Part shown: positions 3,866 through 36,196 of the stretch, piece after piece
Numbering within the stretch: position 1 is the stretch's first letter
Layout of the letters: the number at the start of each line of letters is the position of its first letter
Source: a virus
Taxonomy: Duplodnaviria; Heunggongvirae; Uroviricota; Caudoviricetes
IMG/VR virus record: IMGVR_UViG_3300035698_015309
Strand: one strand, 5' to 3'
Length of the DNA stretch: 64,000 bases
The notes under the pieces: model-generated
What the model was told of the DNA's origin: nothing
The model's database searches: none
The model's input: only the letters and a program-made list of their open reading frames with translations
Made by a program: the position numbers and the translations under genes

Positions 3866-5097
3866 TGGCCAAAAACAAACCACAAAGACACTCGTTAGTG
3901 GGGCAACGTTTTGGTAAACTCTTGGCCCTGGAGAGGATTCCCGAAGGGCAAACCAAATATCGCTGTCTATGTGACTGCGGGAAAGAAGTTACCGTTGCCA
4001 GAGGCAGCCTTCAGCAAGGCGTAACACGTAGTTGCGGCTGTCTTCGTTCCCCCGATCTCATAGGACAAAAATTCCATCGGTTAACAGTCCTGGCCCTAAC
4101 CCGAAAAATGAAACAGGGTCGGAAGTTGCCCCACTACATCTGTCGATGCGACTGCGGAAACGAGCACATCGTAGACAGAACCGACCTCACCAAAGGGCGA
4201 GTAAAAAGCTGTGGCTGCCTACGGGGGTCTCATTATGGTACTGCCCGACCCATATGCAAGGGAGATCATTTCGGACGGTTGACAGTAGTTGCACAGGCTG
4301 GGAAGGGGGAGCATCTTTGCAACTGCTCTTGCGGAGGAACAAAAATCGTCCCCTATGTCCGTTTGAGAGCAGGTTCCGTGCAAAGCTGTGGGTGCCTACG
4401 AGGTTCGCCCCTGCCTTGGGGACAGGCGGCGCAGAATGCTGTTTTTCTGAGGAATCGAAAAAACGCACAGCTAAGAGGGTTGTCCTTTACCTTGATCCGA
4501 AACGACACACTGCCTCTTTTCAAACAAAACTGCTACTACTGTGGTGCGCCCCCGACAATGATTTACAAACACCCCAGAGGAAACTGCATCTACAATGGAT
4601 TGGATCGGGTGGACAACACCGAGGGTTACACACCCTCAAACGTGGTGCCCTGCTGCTGGAAGTGCAATAGAGCCAAGAGAGAGGCAACTAGAGAAGACTT
4701 TCTGAACTGGGTGATGTTACTACATGACCCAATACCACCCATCTCTGCCTCAGGTCTGGCCCGTGTAGTGGTCACCCCCAAAGACAAACAAATTTACCGG
4801 AAATATCAAGGAGACGCTACTCGACGAGGCATCTCCTTTAGTCTTGATCTCACTCCTTTTGCAGCCCTGATTCAGTCCAACTGTGGGTACTGTGGAACAC
4901 CCCCTGCATCTCGGTACAGAAAACATGTTTACACAGGGATAGACCGAGTCGACAATGTTTTGGGCTATGCCGCAGATAACTGTGTGCCTGCCTGCATCAG
5001 GTGCAATCGGGCAAAGAACACCGATGAATTAGCTGACTTCCTGGCTTGGGCAAAACGGATCCAGACCTTTCAAACCACCGCAATTTCCACCAAATAG
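3866..5097 (+). CDS. HNH endonuclease-like protein: four N-terminal ~45-aa Cys-rich repeats (GxxFGxL..Y.C.CDCG...SCGCL) plus two C-terminal HNH motifs (DRVDN..GY...N..P.C..CNRAK)
   Basis: Start MAKNKPQRH after a GGGGAGG RBS. Tandem internal repeats visible in the translation. HNH signature occurs twice. Confidence 0.6.
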
Positions 5098-6617
5098 CGG
5101 AACACCTGAGCATCCTGGTTGAAGGTAACCAACTCGTCATGCACAAAGCCCCCCTGACTTTGTTTCCCGCAGGCAAAGATGAAGTCCTTAGTCGGCCACC
5201 CTGCCGGGCGATGCCTGTCCCAGCAAGCCGAGCCCCGTATGTCCGCTAACCCGAGGGCAACTTCCTGAAGGTACATGAAAGCATTGCGAGAGGCGTTGCC
5301 TGACCCGTAGTAGGCTCCTCTAGCGCTGGTGTAGTTCATCGACTTAAGTGCCCCATTCGTACCATCCGTAGGCGAACCCCCGACGAGCTTGTGTCCTGTG
5401 GCGTTCCAAGCGGGGGCGTGGTAAATGCCTCGTCCGAAGGCTGCTCCCGCCTTGTGGACACCCCGAGGAAGATTCTCAGGCATCAGGAGTCCCTGCTTGC
5501 TGATACCCAACAAGTTTTCGGTGCGTGTGCCATGCCACGCCATGATCCGTCCTGTTGCCCCCGGCTTTTTGGCGGTTTGAGTGGCATAGGTACTAAAGCG
5601 GCTGTCTGTACCGTTGCGTGTGAACTTGAACACCCTGGCAACCCGCAACACCGAACGGCCTCCTCGCCACCAGTTTTGATTCCGCTGTGACTGTGCCGTG
5701 TTGAAGATCTCCACGACTTTGCGGAAGTCCTGGGTGCTTGGTTCACAAATTTCAATGGAGCAGCCGAGGCCATCGTACCATATCTGTTCTTTGCCCGCTG
5801 TGCTGGACGTGTGTGCTGCAGCTTGAAACACCTCCTTGGTCAGGTGGGCATCCCGAAGAAGCTGGAGGAATTTGCGCTGTTCCTGCAACCGAGCATAGCT
5901 GGAGAGCACCACTAGATGCAGGTTGTCCTGCCCCCGCTGATCACGTCTGATCTCTCTCGGAACATTGGACATGAAACGGTTGGTCAGGTCAATGACCCCA
6001 TCTCGGGGCACACCCTTTACGAGGGGCAGCGTCTGTTCCCGGTTTCGGGAACTCTCCCGCCCGAACTCCTGTTCTAAGGTGGTCTCGATCTCATCGAGGA
6101 TGGAGCCTCCGATGTCTAATTGCCTATCTGATAAATTACCGATGGGGTTGTCCGCCGTTGCCCCGGCCTGAGCGGAAAGACCAGCCCGAACTACCCGACT
6201 CGTCTCGTTGTAGATGACGCTCAGAAGTTGCCCGACTTCGGGGTTAAGGGAAGAAGTTACGGGGGCGGGTGTTAAAGCGACGGGCACAGCCGTCCCATTG
6301 GCAGCGGCTTTATTCATCTCCTCTTGATCAGAACGAGTTTCCAGCCGGGTGTACCCTTTACGTTCCTTCCCCTGCACCTTTTTGGAAAGCAGCGACTGTG
6401 CCTGCCCCAAGCTGATGCCCCGTTTGCTGCCCTTGTCAGATCCGGCTTTGCCAGTCGGACCCCATCGACACTCGAAGTTCGCCATCCCCCCTCCGAGATC
6501 CTCCACCCACCCCTTCCAGAATTTGTTACTGCCGAGGGTCACACAGCCGGTCTTAGCCCCCGTCAAATCTGTGAAATTCAGGGTCACACTCTCAACAATT
6601 GTCCCGGCCATCGTCAA
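5070..6617 (-). CDS. WGR-domain + PARP-like ADP-ribosyltransferase catalytic domain protein (515 aa)
   Basis: N-terminal KFWKGWVE...FECRWGPTG (WGR). C-terminal AWHGTRTENLLGISKQGLLMP / GRGIYHA / YLQEVALG / HDELVTF align with the PARP1 H-G-S, GKGIYFA and YNEY catalytic blocks (H-Y-E). Minus-orientation motif plus hairpin upstream at 6645-6690. Confidence 0.8.
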   Translation of the reverse strand: MTMAGTIVESVTLNFTDLTGAKTGCVTLGSNKFWKGWVEDLGGGMANFECRWGPTGKAGSDKGSKRGISLGQAQSLLSKKVQGKERKGYTRLETRSDQEEMNKAAANGTAVPVALTPAPVTSSLNPEVGQLLSVIYNETSRVVRAGLSAQAGATADNPIGNLSDRQLDIGGSILDEIETTLEQEFGRESSRNREQTLPLVKGVPRDGVIDLTNRFMSNVPREIRRDQRGQDNLHLVVLSSYARLQEQRKFLQLLRDAHLTKEVFQAAAHTSSTAGKEQIWYDGLGCSIEICEPSTQDFRKVVEIFNTAQSQRNQNWWRGGRSVLRVARVFKFTRNGTDSRFSTYATQTAKKPGATGRIMAWHGTRTENLLGISKQGLLMPENLPRGVHKAGAAFGRGIYHAPAWNATGHKLVGGSPTDGTNGALKSMNYTSARGAYYGSGNASRNAFMYLQEVALGLADIRGSACWDRHRPAGWPTKDFIFACGKQSQGGFVHDELVTFNQDAQVFRYLVEIAVV

Positions 6618-6683
6618 TCCTCCTGGTGGGCGTCAGTGCCCCTCACCTTAACTACTCTGCAGGTTGCCCAGATGATCCCTGGA

Positions 6684-7180: not shown

Positions 7181-7717
7181 CTAGTCCTTTTCGTTTTCCG
7201 GAAGAGCGTGAGCCGTGGCCCTACAAATGTCCCGCAGGATCCCTCGGAGCACTTTGGCTTTGTTGTCTGCTTGTAAGGCCCTGTTCAGGGCCTTTTCCTG
7301 TCGATCCTTTTCCTGTACCCTGTCTGCTGTGGCCTTTGCCCGAATTGCCCGCTTTTCCGCTGACCTTATAGCTTCCACCACTATTGTTAGCGCCACATCG
7401 AGTGGTTCAGAGGGAAAGGGAACAGCGCACTGGACATGCTCATAGTCCCAACCCTCGTACTCGTAACTTCCACGAGTAGTGAGCAACTCCAGAGCAGCCT
7501 CAGCGTCCCCTTCTGACGCCTTCTGCGCCAGTTCAAAATGTTTCCTTCTGGTCTCCCAAATCTTGAGGGACTGCCTGTCATTTTGCAGTGCTCTTAGGTA
7601 GGGGTTGTGCTGGGCGTCCACAGCGAATTCCAGAGAACGTGTTTGGAGGTCGGAACGGGTCTCCTCGGAAAGGCTCGAAGGCTCTGGCCCTGGGTCGGGG
7701 TCCTTGACAGTACCCAA
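7181..7717 (-). CDS. hypothetical protein. TTG start overlaps the LE palindrome of the adjacent tnpB element.
   Basis: 178-aa ORF. The 5' end coincides with GGGTCCTTGACAGTACCC, so the true start is uncertain. Confidence 0.35.
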   Translation of the reverse strand: MGTVKDPDPGPEPSSLSEETRSDLQTRSLEFAVDAQHNPYLRALQNDRQSLKIWETRRKHFELAQKASEGDAEAALELLTTRGSYEYEGWDYEHVQCAVPFPSEPLDVALTIVVEAIRSAEKRAIRAKATADRVQEKDRQEKALNRALQADNKAKVLRGILRDICRATAHALPENEKD

Positions 7718-9212
7718 TTTAGTTGCTAAAATCTAACTATTCCTGCTTGAAACAAGAAGCAGAGGTCAGTAAATGAAGTGTCGCATCTTCCGACTTCACA
7801 AGGACACCAACCGATCTAAGATCGATAAGTTGGAAGCCCTGCACAAAGCATATGTCAAGTACGTCCGTATCTGCGTACAGACGATGCTCAACCAGCAAAC
7901 CCTCAACCTCCCGAAAGCCGCCAAACAAACGTTCTTCCCACGGGCTACTGATCTTACGTCTCAAATCGAAAAGATCGCACGAGACCATGCAATTCAAATC
8001 GTAAGTGCTTGGGCCAAAGCTACTTACGCTCGTAAATTAAAGCCGACTATCACCAATCTCAAGCATGACGGTACCCTCACCGATCAGGACGCCAAAGCAC
8101 TCTGTGTCATCGGGTTGAAGTCCATCAGCAAGCCATGGGAGTTCATCACCCAAGACCATCTCGATGCTTATCACACCCTGTTGGACACCTACGGAGGCAA
8201 CAAGCCTATCGTAAGGGACAACCTACCCATGAGGTTGTCAGAAATGACGGCTCGATTGGAAGACACAACTAAAGCTCCTTTGGGGGGTTTTTGGCTGAGG
8301 GTGTCCTCGTTGGAAGCTCGGAAATCCGTCTGGTTGCCTCTTGTTGGGAATCCTTACATCCAGCAGGCTGATCAGGTTAACAAGGGGATATCAGCCCGTA
8401 AAACCAAGAAGGGGTTCTGGCGCTTTGAGGCAGTTAGCAAGGCTGAGTGGACCATTCCTGAAGCACAGGAAGATTGGCCTAAGTTGGGTGTGGATGTGGG
8501 CTTGAACGTGCTTGCAGCTACTTCAGATGGCGTGACCTATGGTGAACACGTCAAACCTAAGTTCGACAAGCTCTACGCTCGTGTCAGAAATCTCCGAGCA
8601 AACCGCCAACGACAGGACCTGAAGGACAACAGCCCAAAGTTGGATCACCTTGAAAGCAAGCTGAGTGGGTTGATCAAGACAGAAACGGGTCGTGTAGTAA
8701 ACACCCTTATCGTCCGCCATCCTGAGACAGTGTTCGTGGTCGAGGATCTCGACCTTCGAGGTTGCCGAGGCCAAAAGCGGTTTGCTTACAGGGCGTTACA
8801 GACCAACTTGGAGAGAAAAGCCCCAACAGAGAAGGTGAACCCGGCTTATACGTCGCAGGAGTGCCCCTCCTGCGGTTACATTCATCGAGGCAACCGAAGT
8901 TCAATAAGGTTCCATTGCCGCTCGTGCGGTAGGAAGGCTCACGCTGATTGGGTGGGAAGTTCTGGTGTGCTCAGACGTTCTGAAGACGAACACATCAAAG
9001 CTGGCGATCATCCAAGAGGTGTAAAACGAGTGCTAAGAGAGCGATTCCGTGTTAAACGGACCAGTTCCTTGGGATTCGGGCGGAAGGAGCAACCGTCATT
9101 CGAGCCCTTACCGTTGGGCCAGAGGCTTACTACCGTTGGATCAGAGTCATTTGGCAGCGGCACAGCTTCAAACTTGATGCCTGTTACATTCCAGCAGGTT
9201 TTAAGGAACGGT
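7697..9212 (+). mobile_element. tnpA-less tnpB element (IS607-derived): LE palindrome GGGTCCTTGACAGTACCC with TTGACA-17-TAAAAT, tnpB, RE ending GGAACGGT
   Basis: LE shared with mini-elements at 18449 and 36179(-). The sequence just upstream of the tnpB ATG matches the tnpA 3' end / tnpB junction of the IS607 copy at 50340-50376. RE identical to the other copies. Confidence 0.7.
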
Positions 9213-9281
9213 ACCAGTGTCCATCAGCGAACCGCCTGTTCACCACCTGGATCATTGCAGCCTGAGCCATCTCGTCCGTAG
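7773..9281 (+). CDS. tnpB: TnpB (RuvC-like RNA-guided nuclease). Stop codon lost (TAG->CAG in the RE hairpin) giving a ~23-aa read-through into the flank.
   Basis: RuvC-I LGVDVGLNV, RuvC-II VFVVEDLDL, YTSQECPSCG...CRSCG zinc finger, HAD RuvC-III. ~90% identical to the tnpB at 50373. Confidence 0.85.
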   Translation: MKCRIFRLHKDTNRSKIDKLEALHKAYVKYVRICVQTMLNQQTLNLPKAAKQTFFPRATDLTSQIEKIARDHAIQIVSAWAKATYARKLKPTITNLKHDGTLTDQDAKALCVIGLKSISKPWEFITQDHLDAYHTLLDTYGGNKPIVRDNLPMRLSEMTARLEDTTKAPLGGFWLRVSSLEARKSVWLPLVGNPYIQQADQVNKGISARKTKKGFWRFEAVSKAEWTIPEAQEDWPKLGVDVGLNVLAATSDGVTYGEHVKPKFDKLYARVRNLRANRQRQDLKDNSPKLDHLESKLSGLIKTETGRVVNTLIVRHPETVFVVEDLDLRGCRGQKRFAYRALQTNLERKAPTEKVNPAYTSQECPSCGYIHRGNRSSIRFHCRSCGRKAHADWVGSSGVLRRSEDEHIKAGDHPRGVKRVLRERFRVKRTSSLGFGRKEQPSFEPLPLGQRLTTVGSESFGSGTASNLMPVTFQQVLRNGTSVHQRTACSPPGSLQPEPSRP

Positions 9282-9371: not shown

Positions 9372-9534
9372 GTGTGTACCGACCAGCTTATTAAACTACC
9401 ACTCAGTCGGTGGAATTGAACCACACCTTGGCTTTATCAGAGCCACGCTCGAACACGAGCTACGACCTTGTAGTAGGACTGGCTACCTACATCTTCGGTT
9501 TATCAGACCGCTGTTCTAGCCGGTCGGTACACAC
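9372..9534 (-). other. structured element bounded by a perfect 13-bp inverted repeat (GTGTGTACCGACC / GGTCGGTACACAC), immediately downstream of a minus-orientation promoter motif (9535-9565)
   Basis: Internal hairpins GCTCG-TGTT-CGAGC and GGCT-CTGATAA-AGCC, a T-loop-like GTGG-TTCAATT-CCAC, and a duplicated CTGATAA. Confidence 0.3.
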
Positions 9535-9603
9535 TGTCTACTCAGAGAGGTTCCGAGATGATCCCTTTTGCTCGGTACGGTAGAGAAACACAGGAGGAAG
9601 ACC

Positions 9604-9956: not shown

Positions 9957-9982
9957 GATCATCGCCGGTCTTCCCCGAGTAG
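9957..9982 (+). promoter_or_regulatory. GATCATC-N13-GAGTAG promoter-like motif in front of the cas operon
   Basis: tGATCATCgccggtcttccccGAGTAGctgtgtgtataggggggacagATG; same two-box motif as upstream of >25 other genes. Confidence 0.4.
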
Positions 9983-10004
9983 CTGTGTGTATAGGGGGGG
10001 ACAG

Positions 10005-12365
10005 ATGCCCAACTGGAACCGAATAGCCCACAGCGCCAGCAAAGTAACCGGCAAGGTCCAAACGATGGTGGAACATCTGTTGGGGGTTGAAGCGCTGACT
10101 CTCCGTTTCCTGGGCACCCACTTCCCACCCCAGCACGTCAGAGAGGTTTCTTTCGCCAGCCGGGGGCATGACATCGGCAAATACAGTCCCCTGTTCCCTG
10201 ATGTACTGAACGGGGTAGCCCGAGGGGTGCTGGATCATTCCTCACCTGGAGCCTGGGTTGCTTACGACCGAGGATCCCTCCTCGCTTCCCTGTTGATCGC
10301 CGGACACCATAGGGGTCTGCCGGATTTCTCACGCGTCTATTTGGGGTGTGTCCTACGCCCCTCTGCACAGCCGATGGGTAGCGGGACTCATCCTAACCCC
10401 GGTGTCTTCCATGTCTATCCGGGGCCAGCGAAAGACTTGTTGGTTCCCCTACGTGAGGATGGCATCGAGCTTCCTGAAATCAATATAAATGATGATGAGA
10501 CCTTCTTTTCTTTTTCTGAACTGGTGAAAGGCTGGCAGTTGTCCATTGCCAAGGGCTTGGATGTCCGAATGGCCTTTTCTGCGCTCGTTGACGCCGACTT
10601 CCTGGACACCGCCGAGCACTTCAAACCAGGGCGCACCTGTCCCAACCCCCCGTTGGACGCCGGTCTCGCCCTTGACGTTTTGAACAAATACATCGACGGC
10701 CTCAGTGCCAAGAGCAAACGCAGCGATGGTGCTTCCCCTGTGGTGCAACAGGAACGGGACCGTCTACGACAGGACTGCCTCAGAGCCGCCCAGGGGCCTC
10801 CAGGACGCATTTTGACCTGTACAGCCCCCACCGGTGTAGGCAAAACTCTAGCGCTGGTCTCGTTCGCCCTGGCGCACTGTCAGGCCCACCAACTTAAACG
10901 GGTGATCATCGCTGTACCCTACAAAAGCATCATTCAACAGACGGCGAAAACCCTGAAGGAGCTTTTCAAGGACCGGGCCTTCGGTCCCCACTTTGTGTTG
11001 GAGCATCACACGGACGCCACGCAGTGGGTCGAAGAGGAGGATCTCCAACAGGATGGTAGATCAAATGAGATTGACCGACGAGGGCTCACTGAAAACTGGG
11101 ATGCACCAATCATCCTCACCACGAACGTTCAACTATTGGAGTCCTTGTTTTCCAATCGGCCAGGGAGATGCCGGAAACTCCACAACATCCAGGACTGCGT
11201 GATCATTTTTGATGAGGGCCAGTCTTTGCCCAGCCACCTTATGCTCCCCACAATAGCAATGCTCGACCGACTCAGCCGTCAGTATCAGGTCACGGTGGTG
11301 TCTGCCACGGCCACCCAGCCTGCCTTCCAGAGCATCCTGCCTCAGGTAGAAACACTCGTGGGGGAACCGCTCCAGCCCTACGAGGAGATTGCCTCCGCCC
11401 CCGTAGCCTCGGCCAAGGCGATGGTCCGCAACAAGTTTCACTGGCCGCACAACGACGACGAGAGGTGGACCTGGGCGCAGTTGGCTGACCGGGTGTGTTC
11501 GGAAAGGATGTCAAACCTCGTGCTTCTCAACAGGAAGGACCATGCGGAAGCGGCCTGGAGGGAAATACAGACACGGTGGGGGGCGGATCGAGCTATCTAT
11601 TTGACTTCCAACCTGTGTCCAGCCCACCGGAAGGGGCTACTCAAAGAGGTGGTTCGTCGGTTGAAGACCGTTGGGGACTACTTCGTTCTGGCAGCTACTC
11701 CTTGTGTGAACTCAGGGACGGACTTCGACTTCAACAGGGGCTTCCCGGCCATGGGACCGTTGGATGGGACGGCACAAACCGCTGGGCGGGTAAACCGGGA
11801 GGGCTTGCGGGTACTAGGGGACATCTTCGTTTTCCGCCCGGACGTTGAATACAAGGACATGTTCCCGCATGACGAGTGGTTCCAGGCTGCTGCCCGGATC
11901 ACGGAGCGGTTCCTCCGGCGCTACGGACAACGTCTCGACCCGACGAACCCGGAAATCTTGACCCAGTACTATGAGGCCCTCTATCGGGAAGCAGGGCTAG
12001 ATCACCCGGCCACCAAAAAGATCATCGAGGCGTACCAGGAGGGTTCCTTCGAGAAGGTCAGTCGACGCTACCGGGTCATTCCCGACAAAGGGGTCCAGGT
12101 CGTCGTTCCCTACCTGGAAGGAGGGTGTGGGGAGCAGTACAGGAAACTCAACAAGGAGCGGCCCACCCGGAAAAGCTTCCGGATGTGGATGAACCGAGCG
12201 GCCCTGCTATCGGTCTCTGTTCTGTCACTGAAGAAGGATCACCCCCTCTGGCTCAGCCTTGACCCCGTCACGCTGAAAAGGAAGGACGGCTCCATCACCG
12301 AAACGGGCTGGTACATCTGCACTGACCCAAGAGCCTACCACCCGGAACTTGGGCTGGTGCAATGA
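10005..12365 (+). CDS. cas3: Cas3 (HD nuclease + SF2 helicase)
   Basis: HD motifs (HDIGKYSPLF, IAGHHRG). Walker A CTAPTGVGKT. DEAD-like IFDEGQS. Start ATG 10005 after a GGGGGGG RBS; the listed GTG at 9987 lies inside the promoter motif. Confidence 0.9.
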   Translation: MPNWNRIAHSASKVTGKVQTMVEHLLGVEALTLRFLGTHFPPQHVREVSFASRGHDIGKYSPLFPDVLNGVARGVLDHSSPGAWVAYDRGSLLASLLIAGHHRGLPDFSRVYLGCVLRPSAQPMGSGTHPNPGVFHVYPGPAKDLLVPLREDGIELPEININDDETFFSFSELVKGWQLSIAKGLDVRMAFSALVDADFLDTAEHFKPGRTCPNPPLDAGLALDVLNKYIDGLSAKSKRSDGASPVVQQERDRLRQDCLRAAQGPPGRILTCTAPTGVGKTLALVSFALAHCQAHQLKRVIIAVPYKSIIQQTAKTLKELFKDRAFGPHFVLEHHTDATQWVEEEDLQQDGRSNEIDRRGLTENWDAPIILTTNVQLLESLFSNRPGRCRKLHNIQDCVIIFDEGQSLPSHLMLPTIAMLDRLSRQYQVTVVSATATQPAFQSILPQVETLVGEPLQPYEEIASAPVASAKAMVRNKFHWPHNDDERWTWAQLADRVCSERMSNLVLLNRKDHAEAAWREIQTRWGADRAIYLTSNLCPAHRKGLLKEVVRRLKTVGDYFVLAATPCVNSGTDFDFNRGFPAMGPLDGTAQTAGRVNREGLRVLGDIFVFRPDVEYKDMFPHDEWFQAAARITERFLRRYGQRLDPTNPEILTQYYEALYREAGLDHPATKKIIEAYQEGSFEKVSRRYRVIPDKGVQVVVPYLEGGCGEQYRKLNKERPTRKSFRMWMNRAALLSVSVLSLKKDHPLWLSLDPVTLKRKDGSITETGWYICTDPRAYHPELGLVQ

Positions 12366-12459
12366 AAAAGTCTGCGGACAGGGGTTCCTTTTGCGACTTC
12401 ATTGAGTAGTAAGAAGTGCCGCCGAAGAAACTCGGCTGGATAAACAGACGGAGGGACAG

Positions 12460-13131
12460 ATGAAAAAAGGTATGCTGCACGGGTTGGAAGTGTGGGGGGA
12501 CAATGCCTGCTTCTCCCGCCCAGAGGTGACGGAGCGGACCACCTACCCCATCCCAACCCACTCAGCCTGTCGGGGGATCTTCGACGCTATCTACTGGAAA
12601 AGGTCCGCCAACTTCTACTGGCAGATCGTCGGGGTAGAGGTTGTGAACCCGATCCGGTACATGGGGATCATGCGGAACGAGATGAAAGACAAGGTCACCC
12701 GCCGCACTCTTCAGGTTGATCTTACAACCCAGAAGCACCGGACCCAAAAGCACACCAGGACTCTCCTGGACCCCCGGTACCGCATCTTCGCACGGGCGGT
12801 CTGCCGGAATCCTGATGGGAACACCAACGCCATCGACGCCCAATTCCGTCGTCGGGCGGAGAGGGGCCAATGTTTCCACCAGCCCTTCTTAGGTTGCAAG
12901 GAGTTTATGGCCAACTTCCAGCTTGTCCCGGTGGATGAGCATGATCCATCACAGGGACTCGCAGACCTTCAGGTGGACGTGGGGGTGATGGTCTACGACA
13001 CCTTCAATCTGCTGGTGCCCGATGGAGATCCTTCGGTCAGCGTGTTCCACGCACAGATCAAGGATGGGGCCGTGGCCTACCCGGAGTTCACTGATAGTGC
13101 CGCCGTGTTCCGGCCAGGGGGTGCAGCATGA
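12460..13131 (+). CDS. cas5: Cas5c (Cas5d) type I-C pre-crRNA endoribonuclease subunit
   Basis: 223 aa directly after cas3. GLEVWGDNACFSRPE...YWKR resembles Cas5d N-terminal blocks. ATGA overlap with cas8c. Confidence 0.8.
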   Translation: MKKGMLHGLEVWGDNACFSRPEVTERTTYPIPTHSACRGIFDAIYWKRSANFYWQIVGVEVVNPIRYMGIMRNEMKDKVTRRTLQVDLTTQKHRTQKHTRTLLDPRYRIFARAVCRNPDGNTNAIDAQFRRRAERGQCFHQPFLGCKEFMANFQLVPVDEHDPSQGLADLQVDVGVMVYDTFNLLVPDGDPSVSVFHAQIKDGAVAYPEFTDSAAVFRPGGAA

Positions 13132-14960
13132 GTGGTATCGGACAGAGCCTCCTCAACTATGCCGCACACTATATGCCCCAGCAGGCTCCGGTGGGGTACG
13201 AGTACCTGACCGTCGTGGAAACCGTAGTGTGCCTGACCCCGGACGGGAAGTACCAGGACTGTCACCTCAGGGACACCAAGACGGCCTCCCCGATCCTGAC
13301 ACCTCGGGTGCCCTCCAATTTGCTCAGGGCCACGCCCCCCAAGACTCACTTCTTCATCGGGTATGTCCCCCAGGTGTTCCCTCTCCTCGTGGCCGAACCG
13401 CACGACAACACCAAGAACGAGGTGAAGAGGGGCCTCTTCCTGGAGCAGATCAGAACGGTCATCAAGGAGGTTCCCTGCACTCGGAAGTACCTGACCCCCA
13501 TCCAGACCTTCCTGGAGGACGACGAGCAGGTCGCCCTTGTGGTTCAGGCTCTGACGAAGATGGAGGCAGACCTCAAGCGGGCTGTGATCTTCCAGACCGA
13601 GGGGAAGAAACTCGGCATCCCGTTCCAGGACAAGAAGGAATGGCGGGAGTGGTGGGCGACCTACCTTTCAGGAGCGGACAAAAAGAAGAAGACCAGCGAT
13701 AAGACGTTCCGCTGCGTCGTCACCGGGGACGAGATCACGAACCCCTGCCGCATCCATCCTGACGGCATTGCCTTCGGCACAACGAAGACGAAGCTGGTTG
13801 CCGCCAAGCAGACCTCCAGTCACCACTATGGCCAGGAGTCTGGCCTCGTTGCTCCGATGTCAGACCAGACGGCGAGCACAATGACCCAGGCTCTGGTTCA
13901 TGCCGCCCAAAACGCCGGGACGGCCTTTGGGGATCTTCGAATCCTTGTGTGGGCTTGTTCCAGGGGAGAAACCCTTACGGGGAAGGCTGGACTGCTGGCG
14001 GGCCAAGGGCCGGTTCTTGAAGGGGGCGAGTGGACCCAGATCCTGTCCGACGTTATGTCCGACCTCTTGAACTCGGGATTGACGGATGGGGAACTCCGGG
14101 GTGCCACCCGGAAGGTGAAGGAATACCTGGACACGGGCACCGGACCGGGAGGTGTCCTAGACATGGACTGCACCTTGGGCATCGTTTCTAGCAACGGTCC
14201 CCGGTTGGCTGTCCGGCACTGGGAGACTGGACCCCTGTCCGTCCTGTTCAAGAACATCTATCGATGGTATCAGGATATGACCATCAGCAACAACCGCAAT
14301 GACACGGGGATCGCCCGCCTTTCTGCACTCTGGCAGATCCTTTCCGCTGTCAACGGCCCAAGGGGCAAAGCTTCCGAACTGGAGCGTGAGATGCTCGTTC
14401 AGGTAGCCCTGCGGGGCCAGTCGGTCCCAATGAGCATTGTCAAAAAGGCCCTGGTGCAGTTCCGGTCACAGTTGCACCTGTCCATCAAACCGTCAACCAA
14501 CATGGGGATCGCTCCGGCATTGCCGGGAATCCTCAAAACCTTCATCAACAGGAGAGGGAACACCATGTGTGAAGCAGGATTGAACAAGGACCACCCGAGT
14601 GTGGCGTACCAGTGTGGGCGGTTGTTGTCCGTCCTGTCCGAACTCCAGAGCCTCGCCATCGGTGGGAGGAACCCCCCGATGGCCCTGGCTGCTCAGTTCT
14701 CGTCCGCAACGATGCAGAACCCGGCCCGTGCGCTGGCCCGGTTACTGCTCCGTTCCGAGAAGCACGTCAACAAGCTCGTCCGACAGGGAAAGGGATGGGC
14801 GGATCACAAACGGCAGGAGATCGTCGACCGCCTGCCCACAGACCTTCCGACCCGCCTCGGCATCGAGGATCAAGCTTTGTTTGCCATGGGGTTGCTCCAC
14901 CAGCGCTCGTCCTGGAAGAAGCAGGACAAGCCCGCAGGGACACCCCCGATTAAGGCATAG
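13128..14960 (+). CDS. cas8c: Cas8c (Csd1) large subunit
   Basis: 610 aa between cas5 and cas7 in canonical I-C order. Size typical. No closer motif recognised by eye. Confidence 0.75.
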   Translation: MSGIGQSLLNYAAHYMPQQAPVGYEYLTVVETVVCLTPDGKYQDCHLRDTKTASPILTPRVPSNLLRATPPKTHFFIGYVPQVFPLLVAEPHDNTKNEVKRGLFLEQIRTVIKEVPCTRKYLTPIQTFLEDDEQVALVVQALTKMEADLKRAVIFQTEGKKLGIPFQDKKEWREWWATYLSGADKKKKTSDKTFRCVVTGDEITNPCRIHPDGIAFGTTKTKLVAAKQTSSHHYGQESGLVAPMSDQTASTMTQALVHAAQNAGTAFGDLRILVWACSRGETLTGKAGLLAGQGPVLEGGEWTQILSDVMSDLLNSGLTDGELRGATRKVKEYLDTGTGPGGVLDMDCTLGIVSSNGPRLAVRHWETGPLSVLFKNIYRWYQDMTISNNRNDTGIARLSALWQILSAVNGPRGKASELEREMLVQVALRGQSVPMSIVKKALVQFRSQLHLSIKPSTNMGIAPALPGILKTFINRRGNTMCEAGLNKDHPSVAYQCGRLLSVLSELQSLAIGGRNPPMALAAQFSSATMQNPARALARLLLRSEKHVNKLVRQGKGWADHKRQEIVDRLPTDLPTRLGIEDQALFAMGLLHQRSSWKKQDKPAGTPPIKA

Positions 14961-15020
14961 TCTCTAATGGCCTAAGGTGGGCCTTAGAGTTGGATTAGGC
15001 ATAAAGTGAGGAGAAGTATC

Positions 15021-16031
15021 ATGAAGGATCTTTTGATGTGGCTGAAGAGTGGGACGGCGGCAATCGGATACAGGTTCGAGATCTTGTTCCTGTTCGATTG
15101 TCTGATGGGGAATCCCAACGGTGACCCCGACTTCGGCAACCTGCCCCGGACCATCCCGGACACGGGACACGGGTTCGTCACCGACGTCGCCATCAAGCGG
15201 CGTCTCCGCAACTACGTGAGTCTCCGCAAGGCAGGCAAGACCCCGTACCAGATTTTGCTGATGATGAACACCTGTACCAACAGGCTCATCGCCAAGGCCC
15301 ACGAGGACTCCCACGGGACCGTCCCGGCGAAGGCTACCAAGCAGGAGGAGCGGGCGGCGGGTGACCGGATGTGCCAGGACTATTGGGATGTCCGCACCTT
15401 CGGCGGTGTTCTCAACACAGGTGCCAAGGCGGGCCAGATTCGTGGACCCGTCCAGGTGGTGAGTGCCCGGTCCCTCGATCCGGTATCCATCCAGGAGATC
15501 ACCATCACCCGCATGACCGACACCAAGGGCTCCCCTGATCCCAAGAAGGTCAAGACCCCCAAGGATCAGGGTTTCTCCTCCGCCCAGTGGCAGGAGTATG
15601 AGGACGGGGCCGAGGCGGCGGCTCTCCGCACGATGGGAACCAAGGCGATCATCCCCTACGGTCTCTTCGCTGCCAACATCACGGTGAGCGCTTTCGTGGC
15701 GGAACAGACGGGCTTCTCGGCGGAGGATCTGGCCCTGATGATCGAGGGTCTGGAAAACATGTACGACCATGATCGGACCTCCAGCAAGGGTTTGATGACC
15801 TGTCGGGGCATCTACATCTTCAAGCACGTCGGGACGGCGGACGACCCCGAAGAGCGGGCACAGCAGGCCAAGCTCGGGTGCGCCCCGGCCCATAAGCTGC
15901 TGGACAACGGACGCATCGTGACTGTGGTCAAAAAGGACGGGGTAGAGGCCCCGATGTCCTTCGACGACTACACTGTCACCGTGGACGAGTCCAAGCTCCC
16001 GGAAGGTGTCGAGTTCCGGGCCATCCAGTAA
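15021..16031 (+). CDS. cas7: Cas7c (Csd2) backbone subunit
   Basis: MGNPNGDPDFGNLPR signature near the N-terminus. AGGAG RBS before ATG 15021. Last cas gene before the leader and array. Confidence 0.85.
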   Translation: MKDLLMWLKSGTAAIGYRFEILFLFDCLMGNPNGDPDFGNLPRTIPDTGHGFVTDVAIKRRLRNYVSLRKAGKTPYQILLMMNTCTNRLIAKAHEDSHGTVPAKATKQEERAAGDRMCQDYWDVRTFGGVLNTGAKAGQIRGPVQVVSARSLDPVSIQEITITRMTDTKGSPDPKKVKTPKDQGFSSAQWQEYEDGAEAAALRTMGTKAIIPYGLFAANITVSAFVAEQTGFSAEDLALMIEGLENMYDHDRTSSKGLMTCRGIYIFKHVGTADDPEERAQQAKLGCAPAHKLLDNGRIVTVVKKDGVEAPMSFDDYTVTVDESKLPEGVEFRAIQ

Positions 16032-16227
16032 GGCCCTTTGCGAGCGGTTCCGTGGCGACGAAAACCCCGGAGTCGCTCGCAACCCAGAAAACCCCGTGAT
16101 CTGGGGTCGTTATACCGCAGCCGTTCTTTGATAACCGAACCAAACGGCTTGAAAAGTGACGGTTGGGAAGGACCGCTCGCAAAGGGGGCGGGAAAGCTGC
16201 GTCCCACAACGGTTTGCGAGGGGCACT

Positions 16228-17418
16228 GTCGCATCCTCTAACAAAGGATGCGTGGATTGAAACAGAGAGTACGTGCAGGCGTCCAGCGGGCTCAAGCCAA
16301 CGGAAAGTCGCATCCTCTAACAAAGGATGCGTGGATTGAAACGTTACTGCCCGCATGACACCCCGGATGAGATCACCAGTCGCATCCTCTAACAAAGGAT
16401 GCGTGGATTGAAACACTGTGGACCTGGCGGGGAAGAAGCCGACCTATGGTGGTGTCGCATCCTCTAACAAAGGATGCGTGGATTGAAACTTTCAAACAGC
16501 GACCCAGTCGAGTGCGACTTGGTGGGTGTCGCATCCTCTAACAAAGGATGCGTGGATTGAAACAAGTGCCTCGCCGTCAAGGATCCAGAGGGGAAGCTGA
16601 AGTCGCATCCTCTAACAAAGGATGCGTGGATTGAAACAGGCCCACAGAACGGCTCCCACGGCCTGGGGACGCCGTGTCGCATCCTCTAACAAAGGATGCG
16701 TGGATTGAAACGCTCAGAGGACTGCTCGACGGGACAAGACGGTCTTCCTCGTCGCATCCTCTAACAAAGGATGCGTGGATTGAAACTCGAAGTTGGGCGA
16801 AATCCAGGAATGACGGTCACAAGTCGCATCCTCTAACAAAGGATGCGTGGATTGAAACAATCCGATGACACTTCCCTTTCCTGTCCGCCCTTGGAGCGTC
16901 GCATCCTCTAACAAAGGGTGCGTGGATTGAAACGAGATCCCCCTTGCGACTCCCGCCCTGAAGGCGCTGGCGAAGTCGCATCCTCTAACAAAGGGTGCGT
17001 GGATTGAAACGTAAGCGAACTCCACCCCTGGTCCGTGGGTGACCGGTCGCATCCTCTAACAAAGGGTGCGTGGATTGAAACGCAGTGAGCCAGCGCCCCA
17101 CGAGCCATGCCTGCCTTACTGTCGCATCCTCTGAAAAAAGGATGCGTGGATTGAAACTAAATCCGATTTACGGGGAACTGGCTGGTCGGCTCACGTCGCA
17201 TCCTCTAACAAGGGGTGCGTGGATTGAAACGCTGATTCGGACTGATCCCTGAGAAGGCGCAACCCTGCCGTCGTACCATCTAACAAGGGGATGCGTGGAT
17301 TGAAACGAAACCGCAGCGAGGCAGAAGGGGTCACTCCCTCACGGGTGTGTGGATTGAAACATTAGGGTAGTAAGTGTAGACAACCTCGTCGTTCCCATGA
17401 GGGGGCGTGGATTGAAAC
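16228..17418 (+). CRISPR. Type I-C CRISPR array: 15 well-conserved 36-37-nt repeats (GTCGCATCCTCTAACAAAGGATGCGTGGATTGAAAC) plus 2 degenerate terminal repeats. Spacers 35-43 nt. Leader at 16035-16227.
   Basis: Repeat starts 16228, 16307, 16379, 16454, 16528, 16602, 16676, 16751, 16823, 16898, 16975, 17046, 17121, 17195, 17270; degenerate ends at 17360 and 17418. Distal repeats carry GGATGC->GGGTGC/GGGGTGC variants. Repeat ends in the I-C-typical GTGGATTGAAAC. Confidence 0.95.
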
Positions 17419-17501
17419 ATCGGTGATCCAGTTATACTCCCGATCCAGGCACGCCCCTTCCCCTAGAACGGAGTAGACAAGGGGCCTGAAAGGAGGTTCA
17501 A

Positions 17502-18401
17502 ATGATGACGCTTTGGATGAAACTGGCGGTCTTAGCCGTCCTGGGGACAACGACCCCGGAGCAGACCACCCACCCTGCATATACCCCGTACTCTTACGAC
17601 CAGACCCTCACTGCAGTGGCGGAGACCATCACAGCGGAAGAGGCTGAGTTGATCCTCACCGTTGACGTGGAGGAGGAGATCAACTACTGGATGATCAAGG
17701 AGCACTTCGGGTTCGATGACACCGTAATAGAGGACATCCTACATGTGGCCTTGCACACGGCAGAGGAGCCGATGCTCATCGCCCACATTGTTTCCACGGA
17801 AAGCGGTGGGGACCGTGACGTCATCAACTACTGTAAGGTGTGGGGTGAGCCCTTCTACAACGAGAGCAAAGAACGCTGGGAGAAGAAGTGCGTCAAGCTC
17901 GGCTCCTGCTACACGAACTGCCGGAAAAAGCGGCATGTTTGGAGGAACCACCTCGACGTCGGTCTGTATCAGCTTCGGGACGTGGTCGAGCGGGTCGGTG
18001 GCCCTGAGGACTCCAAGCGGTTCTGCGGGTGGTCCTGGTTGCGAGACTTTGAACGGGACACGGGTCGGGATGTGTCCTCTGAGTGCGCCCTGGAGCGTTT
18101 CTGTGCCCGTGACGCAATGATCCACGCCGTACACACCCTCCGGGAGGAACAGCTTGCAGCGGCCCACAGGGGCGTTGGTAAGGCCAACTGCCGGGGTCTC
18201 CCTGACGAATGGAAGTGGATGGGCCTGTGGAACGGTTGCAAGAGCGCCAGGAACCATGCAGACCACACTGCTCCCCTGGTTGAGATGCGGGACTTCCACG
18301 TCCGTCTGACGATGTTGCGGTACCGTATTGATGAGATTGCCGAGAAATGGCCGCTCTTGGGCTACCTCATTGTGCCCCTGAAAGGACAAAAGGTAGTTTG
18401 A
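17502..18401 (+). CDS. secreted protein with lytic-transglycosylase (SLT)-like motifs
   Basis: Signal-like N-terminus MMTLWMKLAVLAVLG. IVSTESGG...DVGLYQL resembles the SLT ES...GLMQ. GAGTAGAC plus AGGAGG upstream. Confidence 0.45.
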   Translation: MMTLWMKLAVLAVLGTTTPEQTTHPAYTPYSYDQTLTAVAETITAEEAELILTVDVEEEINYWMIKEHFGFDDTVIEDILHVALHTAEEPMLIAHIVSTESGGDRDVINYCKVWGEPFYNESKERWEKKCVKLGSCYTNCRKKRHVWRNHLDVGLYQLRDVVERVGGPEDSKRFCGWSWLRDFERDTGRDVSSECALERFCARDAMIHAVHTLREEQLAAAHRGVGKANCRGLPDEWKWMGLWNGCKSARNHADHTAPLVEMRDFHVRLTMLRYRIDEIAEKWPLLGYLIVPLKGQKVV

Positions 18402-18430: not shown

Positions 18431-18816
18431 GTCGTATCCTTTGACAAAGGGTACTTGACAGTGCCCTTCATACCTGCTAAAGTCTAACTGTTCCTGCTTG
18501 AAACAGGGAGCTGTTGCGGCAGGAAAGCTCATGCTGATTGGGTAGGAGGTTCTGGTGTGCCCAGATGTTCTGGGGACGAACGCATCAAAACTAACGATCA
18601 TCCGAGAGGCATAAAACGAGTGCTAAGAGAGCGATTCCGTGTTAAACGGACCAGTTCCTTGGGATTCGGACGGAAGGAGCAACCGTCATTCGAGCCCTTA
18701 CCGTTGGGCCGGAAGTTTACTACCGAGGTACTTGGGACACCAAGATTCGGCACAGCTTCAAACTTGATGCCTGTTACATTTTAGCAGGTTTTAAGGAACG
18801 GTATGTGGATTGAAAC
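18431..18816 (+). repeat. Solitary CRISPR repeat split by a mini-element: 5' hairpin part GTCGTATCCTTTGACAAAGGGTAC (18431-18454) and 3' handle TGTGGATTGAAAC (18804-18816)
   Basis: The two halves reconstruct a repeat variant with the same hairpin. Insertion is at the stem-loop/handle junction. Confidence 0.65.
18449..18802 (+). mobile_element. Miniature omega-RNA-only element, copy B: LE palindrome GGGTACTTGACAGTGCCC (TTGACA-17-TAAAGT) fused by internal deletion to the tnpB 3' end/RE
   Basis: LE matches 7697 and 36179(-). Junction CTTGAAACAGGG|AGCTGTTGCGGCAGG identical to copy C. RE identical to the tnpB copies. ORF 18557..18784 is the in-frame remnant. Confidence 0.7.
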
Positions 18817-18934
18817 ACGATGTTGATGTTCCACCTTGATGACCTGACTCAGGAGTGGCCGCTCAGGGGGCTGGATCAACGCTCCTAAAAGTCGGGGCCT
18901 TGTGGTTGTGCGTTTTTGACGGTTAGGAGAACGG

Positions 18935-23301: not shown

Positions 23302-23751
23302 TTGGGACTCCGACAACCACCGGGGGTTATCATCGAAGCCCCACGTCCGTCCCTGTGCCTGCACCCGGACGATCATCCTTTATGGGAAACAATGGAACGG
23401 CTGGCTTGGGTTCTTGCGAACAGTCACGGTCTACCCCTCCATTTTGTAGAACCCAAACGTAGACCCCTGTCCGATGGAGCAGCGGGAGTATGCTATTGCC
23501 ACGAGAGGCGTATTGCAATCCGGCTCCGGTGTAAGGATCGTGTAGAAGACGGCGGGGGGTGGTGGTCGAAGCCAGACCCCTGGGATCAGATCGTATTGAC
23601 GGTTGCCCATGAGGTTGCCCACCTCCGACATCCCAATCACGGAGCAGACTTCAAGGACCTGGAACAACGCCTGTACCGAGAAGCTCAGGAACTGCTAGGG
23701 TGTTGGGATCATCCCCGGCACCCACAGAGTAGACAGGGTGAGGGGGAATGA
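23302..23751 (+). CDS. SprT/Wss1-like putative zinc metallopeptidase (HEVAHLRHPNHGADF)
   Basis: HExxH...H motif. Start uncertain (TTG 23302 or ATG ~23389). Confidence 0.4.
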   Translation: MGLRQPPGVIIEAPRPSLCLHPDDHPLWETMERLAWVLANSHGLPLHFVEPKRRPLSDGAAGVCYCHERRIAIRLRCKDRVEDGGGWWSKPDPWDQIVLTVAHEVAHLRHPNHGADFKDLEQRLYREAQELLGCWDHPRHPQSRQGEGE

Positions 23752-28094: not shown

Positions 28095-28180
28095 GAGCAC
28101 GACAAAAAGGGATCATCTCACCGACCTGCTGAGTAGTTAAAGTGAGGGGGCAAATGACCCCTGACAAGGAGACCAACGCA

Positions 28181-28813
28181 ATGAGCAACCCTCAGATAGA
28201 TACCCTGGTCAAACGGATCGCCGCCGCTCGGGACGCTTATTACAACGGCTCCCCCATCATGACGGATGTGGTTTACGACGCCCTGGAAGATCAGCTTCGA
28301 GCGCTCGACCCCAAGCACCCGGAACTCCTCAAGGTCGGTGCAGCCCCCGCCCCGGTCAAGGGTGCATGGCCGAAGGTCCGGCACAGCATCCCAATGTCCA
28401 GCCTGAACAAGGCCCAGGTCGAAACGGATCTGGCTGCGTGGTTCGCCTCGGTGAGCAACGCCGATGTCGCTGTGATGGACAAACTTGATGGTATCTCGTG
28501 TTTTGATGGGGCTACCCCACTGCATCTGGCTAATGGGGAAACTGTCCCCCTTCAAGAGGTCGTAGAAAAGGGACTGATGCCCCAAGTTTTAACCTGGGAT
28601 CCTGAAAGGGGGGTCACCACTGAACAAGTCGTGGCCGTCAAAGACAACGGCATCAAGGATAACTGGGTTCGGGTTACCTTTGAAACGGATCCCCTGCATC
28701 TGGGATCCTCTGTTGTGGTGACTGAAGACCATCTCTTCTATGTCAAGGATAAAGGGTGGGTTGAAGCTAAAGATCTCACGGGTGAAGACGTGCTTGACTG
28801 TACCGAACAACCC
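28181..28813 (+). CDS. ligA: NAD-dependent DNA ligase N-terminal fragment (adenylation-domain start through the KxDG lysine) fused to an N-terminal split-intein half (IntN, 28499-28813)
   Basis: MSNPQIDTLVKRIAAARDAYY...VMDKLDGIS then CFDGATPLHLANGE... (Hint block A). Stops after ~105 aa of intein. An alternative start at 28154 is in frame. Confidence 0.75.
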
Positions 28814-29837
28814 TGATAGTTTAGACCCCAGGATACCCCATCTAGCGGGTGTCCTGGGGGGCCTTATGTTATTAGGGGACGCTTGGTTTGTTGAACATTT
28901 CAGGAAAACCAGAAAACGGGGTAACACGATAGCTGGTCGTCAATGGACCTTGCGAGTAAAGCAAGAAAAACCTGTCCTGACAAAAATTTGTGACCGCTGT
29001 GGACATAAAGAGATCACCTTATCGAGTCCATTATCTCGGGTTCGGCACGTGGTTAAACAAGCTGTAGAACAGGAACAGAAGTGGGGTCTGCATCTTTGCC
29101 CCAAATGTGCTCGTAAGGAGGCACGCAAAAAGGCAGCTATTACGAGAGCAACGCCCGGATGGAGTGAGAACTTTGGTCGTCAAGTAGCTTTGGGTCTGGC
29201 TTTAATACCGTCAGACAAAAATGCAGAACGATATGAAAGAGCACGTCAAACCCGTATTGCCACCTATTCCCGCATGACACCGAAGGAACGACGCAGAGGT
29301 GTCGTCAAGCAATGGCAAACAATGACGGAGGAGGCTAAACAACGGAGAGCAAAAAAAATAGGCGAGGGTGCCAAAAAAGTTTGGGCCTCATTAACGCCAG
29401 AACAAAGAAACCAACGGGTTGCTCGGATGATCAAGGGGCTCCCTCGATCAAAGATATCGGATGATTTTCGACAACATCTGATAGATGCGAGATTGTATGC
29501 AGGCTTTGTAAGTGAACAAGTCATTTCAGGTTTCACCGTTGATGAGGCTAATGAGACCTTGAAAGTGATCCTTGAGTTCTTTGGGGACTACTATCATTGT
29601 AACCCGAGTAACCCCAAATTCTCAGACCCTGAGTTCTACAACACAACAATCCGAATGACATCGGCCCAAAAATGGCAGTATGATCGCCGTCGTTTAGCGG
29701 GACTCAGAAAAGTAGGGTACCGTATTCTAGTGGTATGGGAAAGTGACTGGCGTAAAAACCCTGAAGATGTGTTGAGCAGAGTGCGGACATTTCTGAATCA
29801 GTTTAAAACGGGATCATCTGCGGACCCCACAGAGTAG
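28740..29837 (+). CDS. free-standing endonuclease between the ligA halves; C-terminal Vsr/DUF559-like nuclease domain. Start uncertain (overlaps the IntN end).
   Basis: FFGDYYHCNP...QKWQYDRRRLAGLRKVGYRILVVWESDW. Frame differs from both ligA halves. Ends in the ...GSSADPTE* motif. Confidence 0.55.
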   Translation: MSRIKGGLKLKISRVKTCLTVPNNPDSLDPRIPHLAGVLGGLMLLGDAWFVEHFRKTRKRGNTIAGRQWTLRVKQEKPVLTKICDRCGHKEITLSSPLSRVRHVVKQAVEQEQKWGLHLCPKCARKEARKKAAITRATPGWSENFGRQVALGLALIPSDKNAERYERARQTRIATYSRMTPKERRRGVVKQWQTMTEEAKQRRAKKIGEGAKKVWASLTPEQRNQRVARMIKGLPRSKISDDFRQHLIDARLYAGFVSEQVISGFTVDEANETLKVILEFFGDYYHCNPSNPKFSDPEFYNTTIRMTSAQKWQYDRRRLAGLRKVGYRILVVWESDWRKNPEDVLSRVRTFLNQFKTGSSADPTE

Positions 29838-29868
29838 ACCTAGTGACGGTCATCAAACGAGGTCTACA

Positions 29869-31734: not shown

Positions 31735-32357
31735 CGATGGGTGAGGTCGTACCAGGACCAGGGACGCTTCAGTTTGCGCTGGACAGCATAAATGATCCGG
31801 TGTTGCAAAAGGTTAAGGACCAGCAGCCCCTCACCCCTGAAGACCAAAATCATCTGAGGGAAAAGATGGGGCTTCCTGGTCCTGAGCATGTGCCTTGGGG
31901 TCATGGCCCCTGGAAACGGGACGACCCGGATATGCTCGCCCTTGATTATTTGAAGGACACTACGGTTTTTGGCTCCTGTGATAAGGAGACAGATGAATAC
32001 CTGGAGAACACAATCTGGGAGTGGTACCGAGGTGTGAGACTCGCATTCCAAGAGTGTGGGTGCCAAAACTGCATGCAGATTGGAGAGGCAAAAACGATGA
32101 CAGCGCCCGCTGCAATTGCCCGTGGTGAAAGGCACTACGCAGCCGTAATGAACAAACGCCTGCCACGGGGGTGGAGAAAACAGCCTAAAGTGCTGGCCCT
32201 CATTGCCAAGTTTGACCAGGAACTGAAGGCAGCAGGCAACGATCTCATGCGGACGGCACGGGGGGACAACTACGCTGGGGATACAGCACCTGAGGCAACC
32301 GGGCCAATCGGAAAGGAATGGACCCTTCGGGAATGGCCTCGGGAGTACAGTTGGTGA
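31731..32357 (+). CDS. hypothetical protein; paralogue of the gene at 33031 (VPGPGTLQFA..., CGCQNC)
   Basis: ATGA-coupled to ligA. Confidence 0.45.
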   Translation: MTMGEVVPGPGTLQFALDSINDPVLQKVKDQQPLTPEDQNHLREKMGLPGPEHVPWGHGPWKRDDPDMLALDYLKDTTVFGSCDKETDEYLENTIWEWYRGVRLAFQECGCQNCMQIGEAKTMTAPAAIARGERHYAAVMNKRLPRGWRKQPKVLALIAKFDQELKAAGNDLMRTARGDNYAGDTAPEATGPIGKEWTLREWPREYSW

Positions 32358-36179: not shown

Positions 36180-36196
36180 TCCACCATGGGGATTGT

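Follow-up and report, generated by a model that had tools for sequence, protein, structure and literature searches.

How does a phage make use of a CRISPR-Cas system that has no genes for acquiring spacers? The question is raised by a 64,000-nucleotide (nt) stretch of viral DNA, IMG/VR record IMGVR_UViG_3300035698_015309, which carries four type I-C cas genes, a leader and a CRISPR array. We call this whole stretch the window. It is identical (100%) to positions 323,799-387,798 of the Joint Genome Institute (JGI) contig Ga0208769_1000001 (528,260 base pairs, bp), and its Cas8c protein matches that contig residue for residue. The contig is the longest direct-terminal-repeat contig of IMG/VR; it is 100% complete, carries terminase (TerL) and major capsid (MCP) genes and comes from Ace Lake, Antarctica (PMC8116208).

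The phage itself has been described. Panwar et al. (2020) reported a complete circular huge phage of ~528 kb from Ace Lake, cluster CL24, with a type I-C system that has arrays, lacks cas1, cas2 and cas4 genome-wide, and has spacers with zero matches in IMG/VR (PMC7416419). Al-Shayeb et al. (2020) found that nearly all CRISPR systems of huge phages lack Cas1, Cas2 and Cas4 (PMC7162821). The genome studied here is complete and longer than 200 kb, and belongs with those huge phages. Because the same system in the same genome was published in 2020 (PMC7416419), the core finding, an adaptation-less type I-C system on a huge phage, is already known for exactly this genome: the locus and the contig are the same, and there is no difference between the two descriptions. 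In the accessible part of that source we found no mention of repeat and spacer lengths, of a promoter motif, of solitary repeats or of tnpB elements.

Here we report an analysis of these features. We conclude that the locus is very probably an effector-only type I-C system run by the phage, and we consider, with much less confidence, a role as guides for three repeats that lie outside the array.

The effector operon and its promoter motif

An initial annotation, made from the DNA letters, had proposed the gene order cas3-cas5c-cas8c-cas7c followed by a leader and a 17-repeat array. Profile searches bear this out (Table 1). Cas3 scores 44.9 bits against TIGR01596 (cut-off 43.45) and also matches Cas3-like_C_2. 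Its motifs can be read directly: H24, H55-D56, HH and DADFLD in the HD domain, APTGVGKT and DEGQ as helicase motifs I and II. Two solved structures match it best, and almost equally: 8zns, at E=2e-72, and 8g9u, the I-C Cas3 of Neisseria lactamica, at E=1.2e-71. Cas5c retains the motifs AIYWK and FHQP and has the Neisseria lactamica I-C Cas5 (8g9t) as its closest solved structure. A Pfam scan of the window's open reading frames (ORFs) gave zero matches to Cas6 families.

The annotation had asked for profile support of the subtype. Cas5c and Cas7c exceed their cut-offs. Cas8c is recognized by Pfam and scores 178 bits against NCBIfam TIGR01863, under the equivalog cut-off of 218.65; because of this score we regard it as a divergent member of the family. 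In a word-indexed protein search it was itself the sole protein at E<=1e-10. An alternative start for cas7c, GTG 15006, is wrong, and an exact look-up of that form gave no match. Known I-C systems make Cas11c from an internal start within cas8c. Here, an in-frame ATG at 14565 could yield a Cas11c of 131 residues.

All four cas genes are intact and full length, with the nuclease and helicase motifs of Cas3 present. Judged from its sequence, the system is type I-C: it has cas8c, a Cas5c without Cas6, Cas7c, a Cas3 with HD and helicase domains in a single chain, the order cas3-cas5-cas8-cas7, and a repeat made of a hairpin and a tail. Canonical bacterial I-C systems (Neisseria lactamica, 8g9t and 8g9u; Desulfovibrio vulgaris, 7kha and 8dex) share with it the four effector genes, their order, the repeat tail and Cas5c as processing enzyme. 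They differ in having cas4-cas1-cas2, and the Cas8c of the phage is very divergent. The phage also differs from the I-C variant described in other huge phages, in which a helicase replaces Cas3 (PMC7162821); its own Cas3 is the canonical HD-helicase protein.

The absence of cas4, cas1 and cas2 from the 64 kb, also claimed initially, still holds after the search was extended by 10 kb on each side, to ~83 kb. Pfam matched no Cas1, Cas2 or Cas4 among the ~86 ORFs of the window, and there are none among the JGI gene calls in the two 10-kb flanks. The cas4-cas1-cas2 genes of a bacterial I-C locus, verified by Pfam, were also run by tblastn against the window and its two flanks in all six frames; the best E was 0.038 (24.6 bits). 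Absence from the whole genome is stated in PMC7416419. Since the cas4-cas1-cas2 module is missing, the system is an effector-only derivative and not a complete I-C system.

What drives this operon? The annotation had noted that it shares the motif GATCATC-N13-GAGTAG with the surrounding phage genes, and an exact copy does stand before cas3. The window holds 23 exact copies, and 28 if two or fewer mismatches are allowed, where chance would give 1.3. All copies open to checking share the strand of the start codon that follows and mostly stand 17-45 nt upstream of that codon, although there are exceptions; the copy at the end of the window has no called gene downstream and fell outside the check. 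Other sites include 6652-6677, 23707-23732 and 28111-28136. The extended consensus reads GGGATCATCT-N12-GAGTAG-N5-GTG; a GGGGCAAATGACCCC hairpin and a ribosome-binding site often come after it. Separately, ORF 32318-32968 has a C-terminus that by eye resembles sigma region 4.

The motif is conserved before genes of related huge phages (L006 and L009). In L006 it precedes the cas3 of an unrelated, I-E-like cas operon. A promoter motif common to the phage clade, and its use by the cas operon, are thus supported. Its presence before cas3 here and before the unrelated cas3 of a relative means that the operon is wired into the phage's own transcription programme.

The comparison with relatives extends to the locus as a whole. 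The gene that follows the array (17502-18401, 299 codons) has eight homologues. Marine relatives (L006, positions 11255-18332; also L007 and L008) keep the same neighbourhood, with a PARP-like gene, the 17502-18401 homologue and Band_7, and carry in it a different effector-only type I system: a Cas3 with an HD domain, proteins of 580, 283 and 207 residues and one that is CasE-like. The repeats of this system are I-E-like, 29 nt long (GTATCCCCCACGTAAGTGGGGATGGCAAG), with a two-repeat mini-array upstream of cas3. A third relative, L009, has no cas genes at this locus. These sequences suggest a locus at which effector-only CRISPR modules have landed recurrently. With I-C here, an I-E-like system in the marine relatives and none in the third, and with cas3 behind the same clade-specific motif in both carriers, the pattern points to repeated, selected capture at one locus. 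The PARP-like protein of the window (5070-6617, minus strand) has WGR, PARP regulatory and PARP catalytic domains.

Table 1. Coordinates of the cas locus, the solitary repeats and nearby elements in the window
Feature	Position	Strand	Remarks
tnpB element without tnpA	7698-9213	+	Left end with TTGACA-17-TAAAAT promoter; right end ...TTTAAGGAACGGT(A); bounds from BLAST of copies against each other and from reading the sequence
tnpB ORF	7773-9281	+	Cas12f1-like TNB domain, guided_TnpB; RuvC and zinc-ribbon TNB both present
tRNA-Ile (GAT)	9400-9471	-	ARAGORN, Rfam; own minus-strand motif copy at 9538-9563
Phage promoter-like motif GATCATC-N13-GAGTAG	9957-9982	+	22 nt before cas3 ATG
cas3	ORF 9987-12365; JGI-called ATG 10005	+	HD nuclease fused to superfamily 2 (SF2) DEAD helicase
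cas5c (Cas5d)	12460-13131	+	Predicted endonuclease for the CRISPR RNA precursor; TIGR01876 102.7 bits, cut-off 85
cas8c (Csd1), divergent	13128-14960	+	Pfam Cas_Csd1 PF09709, E=1.7e-66, profile positions 16-556 of 559
Possible internal cas11c	14565-14960	+	In-frame ATG in cas8c, Shine-Dalgarno-like AGGAGAGGG upstream; 131 codons
cas7c (Csd2)	15021-16031	+	TIGR02589 248.7 bits, cut-off 182.25
Leader	16032-16227	+	196 nt, between cas7c and array
CRISPR array	17 repeats, 16 spacers; 16228-17418	+	Degenerate end distal to cas genes
Solitary repeat 1, 5' part (hairpin)	18431-18454	+	30 nt after stop of gene 17502-18401
Miniature tnpB-derived element	18455-18804	+	350 nt; TTGACA-17-TAAAGT promoter and ~290 nt of tnpB 3' region, no tnpB ORF; splits solitary repeat 1
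Solitary repeat 1, 3' part	18805-18816	+	GTGGATTGAAAC
Diverged duplicate of last ~25 codons of gene 17502-18401	18817-18888	+	Starts at first base after solitary repeat 1
Solitary repeat 2	38705-38740	+	GTCGCATCTTTTGGCAAAAGGTGCGTGGATTGAAAC; complete, between two convergent genes
Solitary repeat 3	63521-63557	+	37 nt; complete; 3 nt beyond stop of a minus-strand gene

The array and the targets of its spacers

All 17 repeats of the array end in GTGGATTGAAAC. Repeats 1-9 are an identical 36-mer (GTCGCATCCTCTAACAAAGGATGCGTGGATTGAAAC) and repeats 10-15 are variants of 36-37 nt. On folding, each repeat of the array gives a hairpin followed by a single-stranded 11-nt tail, UGGAUUGAAAC, which is the repeat architecture of type I-C. 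Repeats 16 and 17 (17307-17418) are 31 nt long with loops of canonical length and unrelated stems; they could represent either an ancestral state of the array or a degraded end. Spacers 1-14 fall in the range given initially, 35-43 nt (median 38.5, periods 71-79 nt); spacers 15 and 16, which the annotation did not mention, have just 23 and 27 nt. Within the leader, at 16039-16225, TTGCGAG(C) or its complement occurs four times in an inverted-repeat arrangement.

These dimensions are odd for the subtype. The view that spacer length is unusually variable for I-C agrees with a comparison against 12 bacterial I-C arrays, an incidental catch of a pattern scan, in which repeats have 32-33 nt, spacers run from 32 to 38 nt with medians of 34-35, and the periods are 64-70 nt. 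The repeat is unusual as well, at 36 nt with a 7-nt loop. At 17 repeats, the array also exceeds the median of 6 for other huge phages, whose arrays are compact (PMC7162821).

What, then, integrated the spacers? In the absence of Cas1, Cas2 and Cas4 the set would be fixed or renewed only with outside help. Panwar et al. proposed such help: on their view the array is not static, and Cas1-Cas2(-Cas4) from an I-C system of the host would serve the phage in trans (PMC7416419). Something must have integrated the 14 unique full-length spacers of varied length, identical repeats and spacers are reported there on contigs binned as Gammaproteobacteria and Firmicutes, and the 12-nt repeat tail is identical in ordinary bacterial I-C arrays. 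Those bacterial contigs, however, may be mis-binned fragments of the phage. Among 185,579 GTDB species representatives no genome has the 36-nt repeat. Scans of IMG/VR with the repeat and with Cas8c peptides gave no match, and the phage itself seems to be missing from the copy of IMG/VR that was scanned. The locus with its array is 99.99% identical in a second sample, and the array itself is identical in the two. Because bacterial repeats and spacers have other lengths, a standard I-C integrase would not obviously make this array. We consider acquisition in trans somewhat unlikely.

A phage-run effector-only system very probably explains the locus best, and would work as follows. During infection the operon and array would be transcribed from the motif before cas3. 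Cas5c would cut the precursor at the base of each hairpin, and Cas5c, Cas8c, an internally translated Cas11c and ~7-8 copies of Cas7 would assemble on each CRISPR RNA. The complex would then locate matching DNA flanked by a protospacer-adjacent motif (PAM) and recruit Cas3 to degrade it. Three single repeats outside the array, described below, would each supply one fixed guide to this Cas5c/Cascade machinery. As targets, rival phages or other mobile elements of the same host would be likeliest. Vibrio phage ICP1 is a precedent for a phage-encoded type I system turned on another mobile element. Its type I-F system has cas1 and cas2-3 and acquires spacers, whereas the Ace Lake phage cannot acquire them on its own.

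Several results weigh against this explanation. No target was detected for any of the 16 spacers: there is none in the window outside the array, none among GenBank phages and PLSDB plasmids (one phage match, at E=0.8, is at chance level), none in the loci of related phages, and none in IMG/VR for the first 22 nt of spacers 1-4. The spacer searches suggested in the initial annotation have in this way been run on the window, phages and plasmids; its claim of conflict between mobile elements, left without a target, rests on analogy. The leader contains neither a sigma-70-like promoter nor the phage motif, and for this reason transcription of the array is assumed to occur by read-through. Cas8c and the core of Cas3 score under their NCBIfam equivalog cut-offs. 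The guide that would follow the first of the single repeats has no match in a non-self context in JGI metagenome contigs. Finally, the degenerate far end of the array and the insertion that breaks one single repeat are both compatible with decay.

Was the system taken from a bacterium, and is it now a decaying relic that no longer functions? The missing adaptation module, the lack of spacer targets, the degenerate terminal repeats with their 23- and 27-nt spacers and the disrupted single repeat would all fit. Against this, the four ORFs are full length with their catalytic motifs, the nine leading repeats are identical, and the operon has acquired the phage's own promoter motif. Moreover, at this locus related phages retain an effector-only type I system of a different kind, which argues for selection for such modules. 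We find a relic very unlikely.

A different role for a working system would be to silence or cut host genes for takeover of the cell. Both competing phages and host genes have been proposed as targets of huge-phage systems, and some huge-phage spacers do target host genes of transcription and translation (PMC7162821). Here the intact HD nuclease of Cas3 favours degradation over silencing, and this role seems to us improbable.

Two further observations concern the spacers. The first 12 nt of spacer 9 (16859-16897) match a tnpB exactly at 50716, directly after TTC on the minus strand, and the remainder is unmatched; the same spacer matches 12 of 13 nt at 8116 (minus strand). About 0.002 such matches are expected by chance, an estimate made for a match noticed post hoc. 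The idea that the short terminal spacers or the sequence after the array act as regulatory guides against the cas promoter was dropped, since no convincing match of PAM plus seed was found.

Solitary repeats at gene ends

Outside the array, GTGGATTGAAAC (one mismatch or fewer) occurs in only three copies in the window, ending at 18816, 38740 and 63557, where 0.3 would be expected by chance window-wide. Each is the end of a solitary repeat, with no second repeat within ~100 bp; chance explains none of the three. The 12-nt tail is exact in these repeats. Compared with the array repeat, the changes in their stems are compensating ones, such as C-G to U-A, and the pairing is kept. Solitary repeats 2 and 3 adjoin phage genes directly at their 3' ends, and solitary repeat 1 comes after one copy of a gene end and abuts another.

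A miniature tnpB-derived element interrupts solitary repeat 1, whose halves, once rejoined, give a 36-mer that folds like the array repeat. The duplicated gene end that begins right after it (18817-18888) has ~70% DNA identity to 18309-18385 over ~70 nt (TMLRYRIDEIAEKWPLLGY versus TMLMFHLDDLTQEWPLRGL). The repeat may be read as following a recoded copy of the gene end and abutting the displaced original end. Solitary repeat 2 lies 8 nt past the stop of a co-directional gene for a metallo-beta-lactamase-fold protein (37929-38696; weak match to the anti-Pycsar protein Apyc1) and abuts the conserved C-terminal codons of the convergent gene. In the closest relative the two genes overlap by 8 nt at this junction with no repeat between them, and solitary repeat 2 is therefore an insertion. 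For the gene beside solitary repeat 3, no relatives were found in IMG/VR.

What might solitary repeats do? Phage solitary repeats, including the type I-C RacrIC1, have been shown to inhibit CRISPR-Cas as RNA anti-CRISPRs (Racrs) (Camara-Wilpert et al. 2023, PMC10651486; Faure et al. 2019, cited there). The repeats here could in the same way soak up the Cas proteins of a host I-C system, whose ordinary repeats share the tail GTGGATTGAAAC; like the known cases, they are single viral repeats away from arrays that have kept the hairpin. They differ from Racrs, which have their own promoter upstream and no cas genes in their element. The Ace Lake phage has the matching cas genes in the same genome, and its own Cas5c and Cas7c recognize the same tail and would be poisoned too. 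No sigma-70-like promoter turned up in a scan of the sequence directly before solitary repeats 2 and 3. The stop of a co-directional gene precedes solitary repeat 1 by 30 nt and solitary repeat 2 by 8 nt; all three abut gene ends, one of them a diverged gene-end copy, and a decoy would need neither. We judge that Racrs are an unlikely explanation. Plain terminators were considered and rejected: there is no U-tract, the scan did not call them, and the exact conservation of the 12-nt tail argues against this role.

With low confidence, we prefer to read the solitary repeats as fixed guides for the phage's own complex against the alleles of sister phages; alternatives are RNA anti-CRISPR decoys (PMC10651486), processing sites and relics. 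No sister-phage alleles that match the guides were found in related-phage loci or metagenome contigs. Taken further, the fixed-guide reading suggests that the phage could gain guides without Cas1-Cas2 through a single repeat set beside a conserved gene end. Cas5c would cut out a fixed guide against sister alleles, and the phage's own copy would be protected by the repeat, which provides no PAM, or by recoding. In this extended form the proposal is a long shot.

Mini-CRISPR arrays carried by viruses may offer a parallel. Medvedeva et al. (2019) reportedly found them in conflicts between related viruses; such arrays are said to depend on the host's Cas proteins and to consist of a spacer flanked by two repeats. 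They would be alike in being units of one guide that resembles a gene of relatives, which fits the diverged gene-end copy after solitary repeat 1. Unlike them, the unit of the Ace Lake phage has one repeat and its own effector.

Neighbouring elements and implications

The tnpB element without tnpA that had been placed ~750 bp upstream of cas3 is indeed there; its right end (~9213) lies ~790 bp before the cas3 ATG, and no tnpA adjoins the tnpB ORF 7773-9281. The protein matches PF07282 (E=5.9e-13) and scores 91.8 bits against NF040570, just under the cut-off of 100. Between the element and cas3 are the tRNA-Ile gene, its motif copy and a 105-codon ORF of unknown function.

The last ~290 nt of the element recur at 1-257, 18515-18803, 35826-36180 (minus strand) and 51520-51812. 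This is the part kept in all five copies, two of which lack the gene; retention of the 3' region in gene-less copies fits a functional (guide) RNA. A second miniature element (35826-36179, minus strand) likewise joins a strong TTGACA-17-TAAAGT promoter to the ~290-nt 3' region with no gene. Both miniature elements look like stand-alone guide-RNA cassettes. The guide of the one at 18455-18804 would begin with GTGGATTGAAAC because it is inserted at the junction of hairpin and tail in solitary repeat 1.

There are at least five tnpB-type genes and three truncated copies in the ~83 kb. Among them are a full IS607-type unit (MerR-resolvase and tnpB, 49621-51812), a second tnpB-like gene (39486-41067) with AYTSQ and DHNAALN motifs that adjoins a helix-turn-helix gene, and two genes just past the window (L005, 14314-16035 and 18861-20327). 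Since copies are this dense throughout the region, a tnpB close to cas3 needs no special explanation. We reject a functional link between the two; their proximity is probably coincidental.

The NAD-dependent DNA ligase of the window (28142-31734) is broken into two genes, of which the first ends in an intein N-half (KLDGIS|C...) and the second starts with the C-half (...HN|C). Between the ligase halves sits an MTES_1575-like gene for a free-standing endonuclease (28740-29837). In L009 the ligase is broken elsewhere, by a TnsA-like gene.

The core finding confirms once more that huge phages retain effector-only CRISPR systems whose transcription they control themselves, and it leaves the picture of 2020 unchanged. 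The parts worth more work are the dispersed solitary repeats, the clade-wide promoter capture, and the lengths of repeat and spacers, both out of the ordinary; with a repeat this long, and with spacers that are long and variable, one has to ask what integrated them. Repeats that stand alone at gene ends suggest a route, open to test, through which a phage that lacks Cas1-Cas2 might come by useful guides. If this is true, gaining a guide through a single repeat would act like a homing or gene-drive device.

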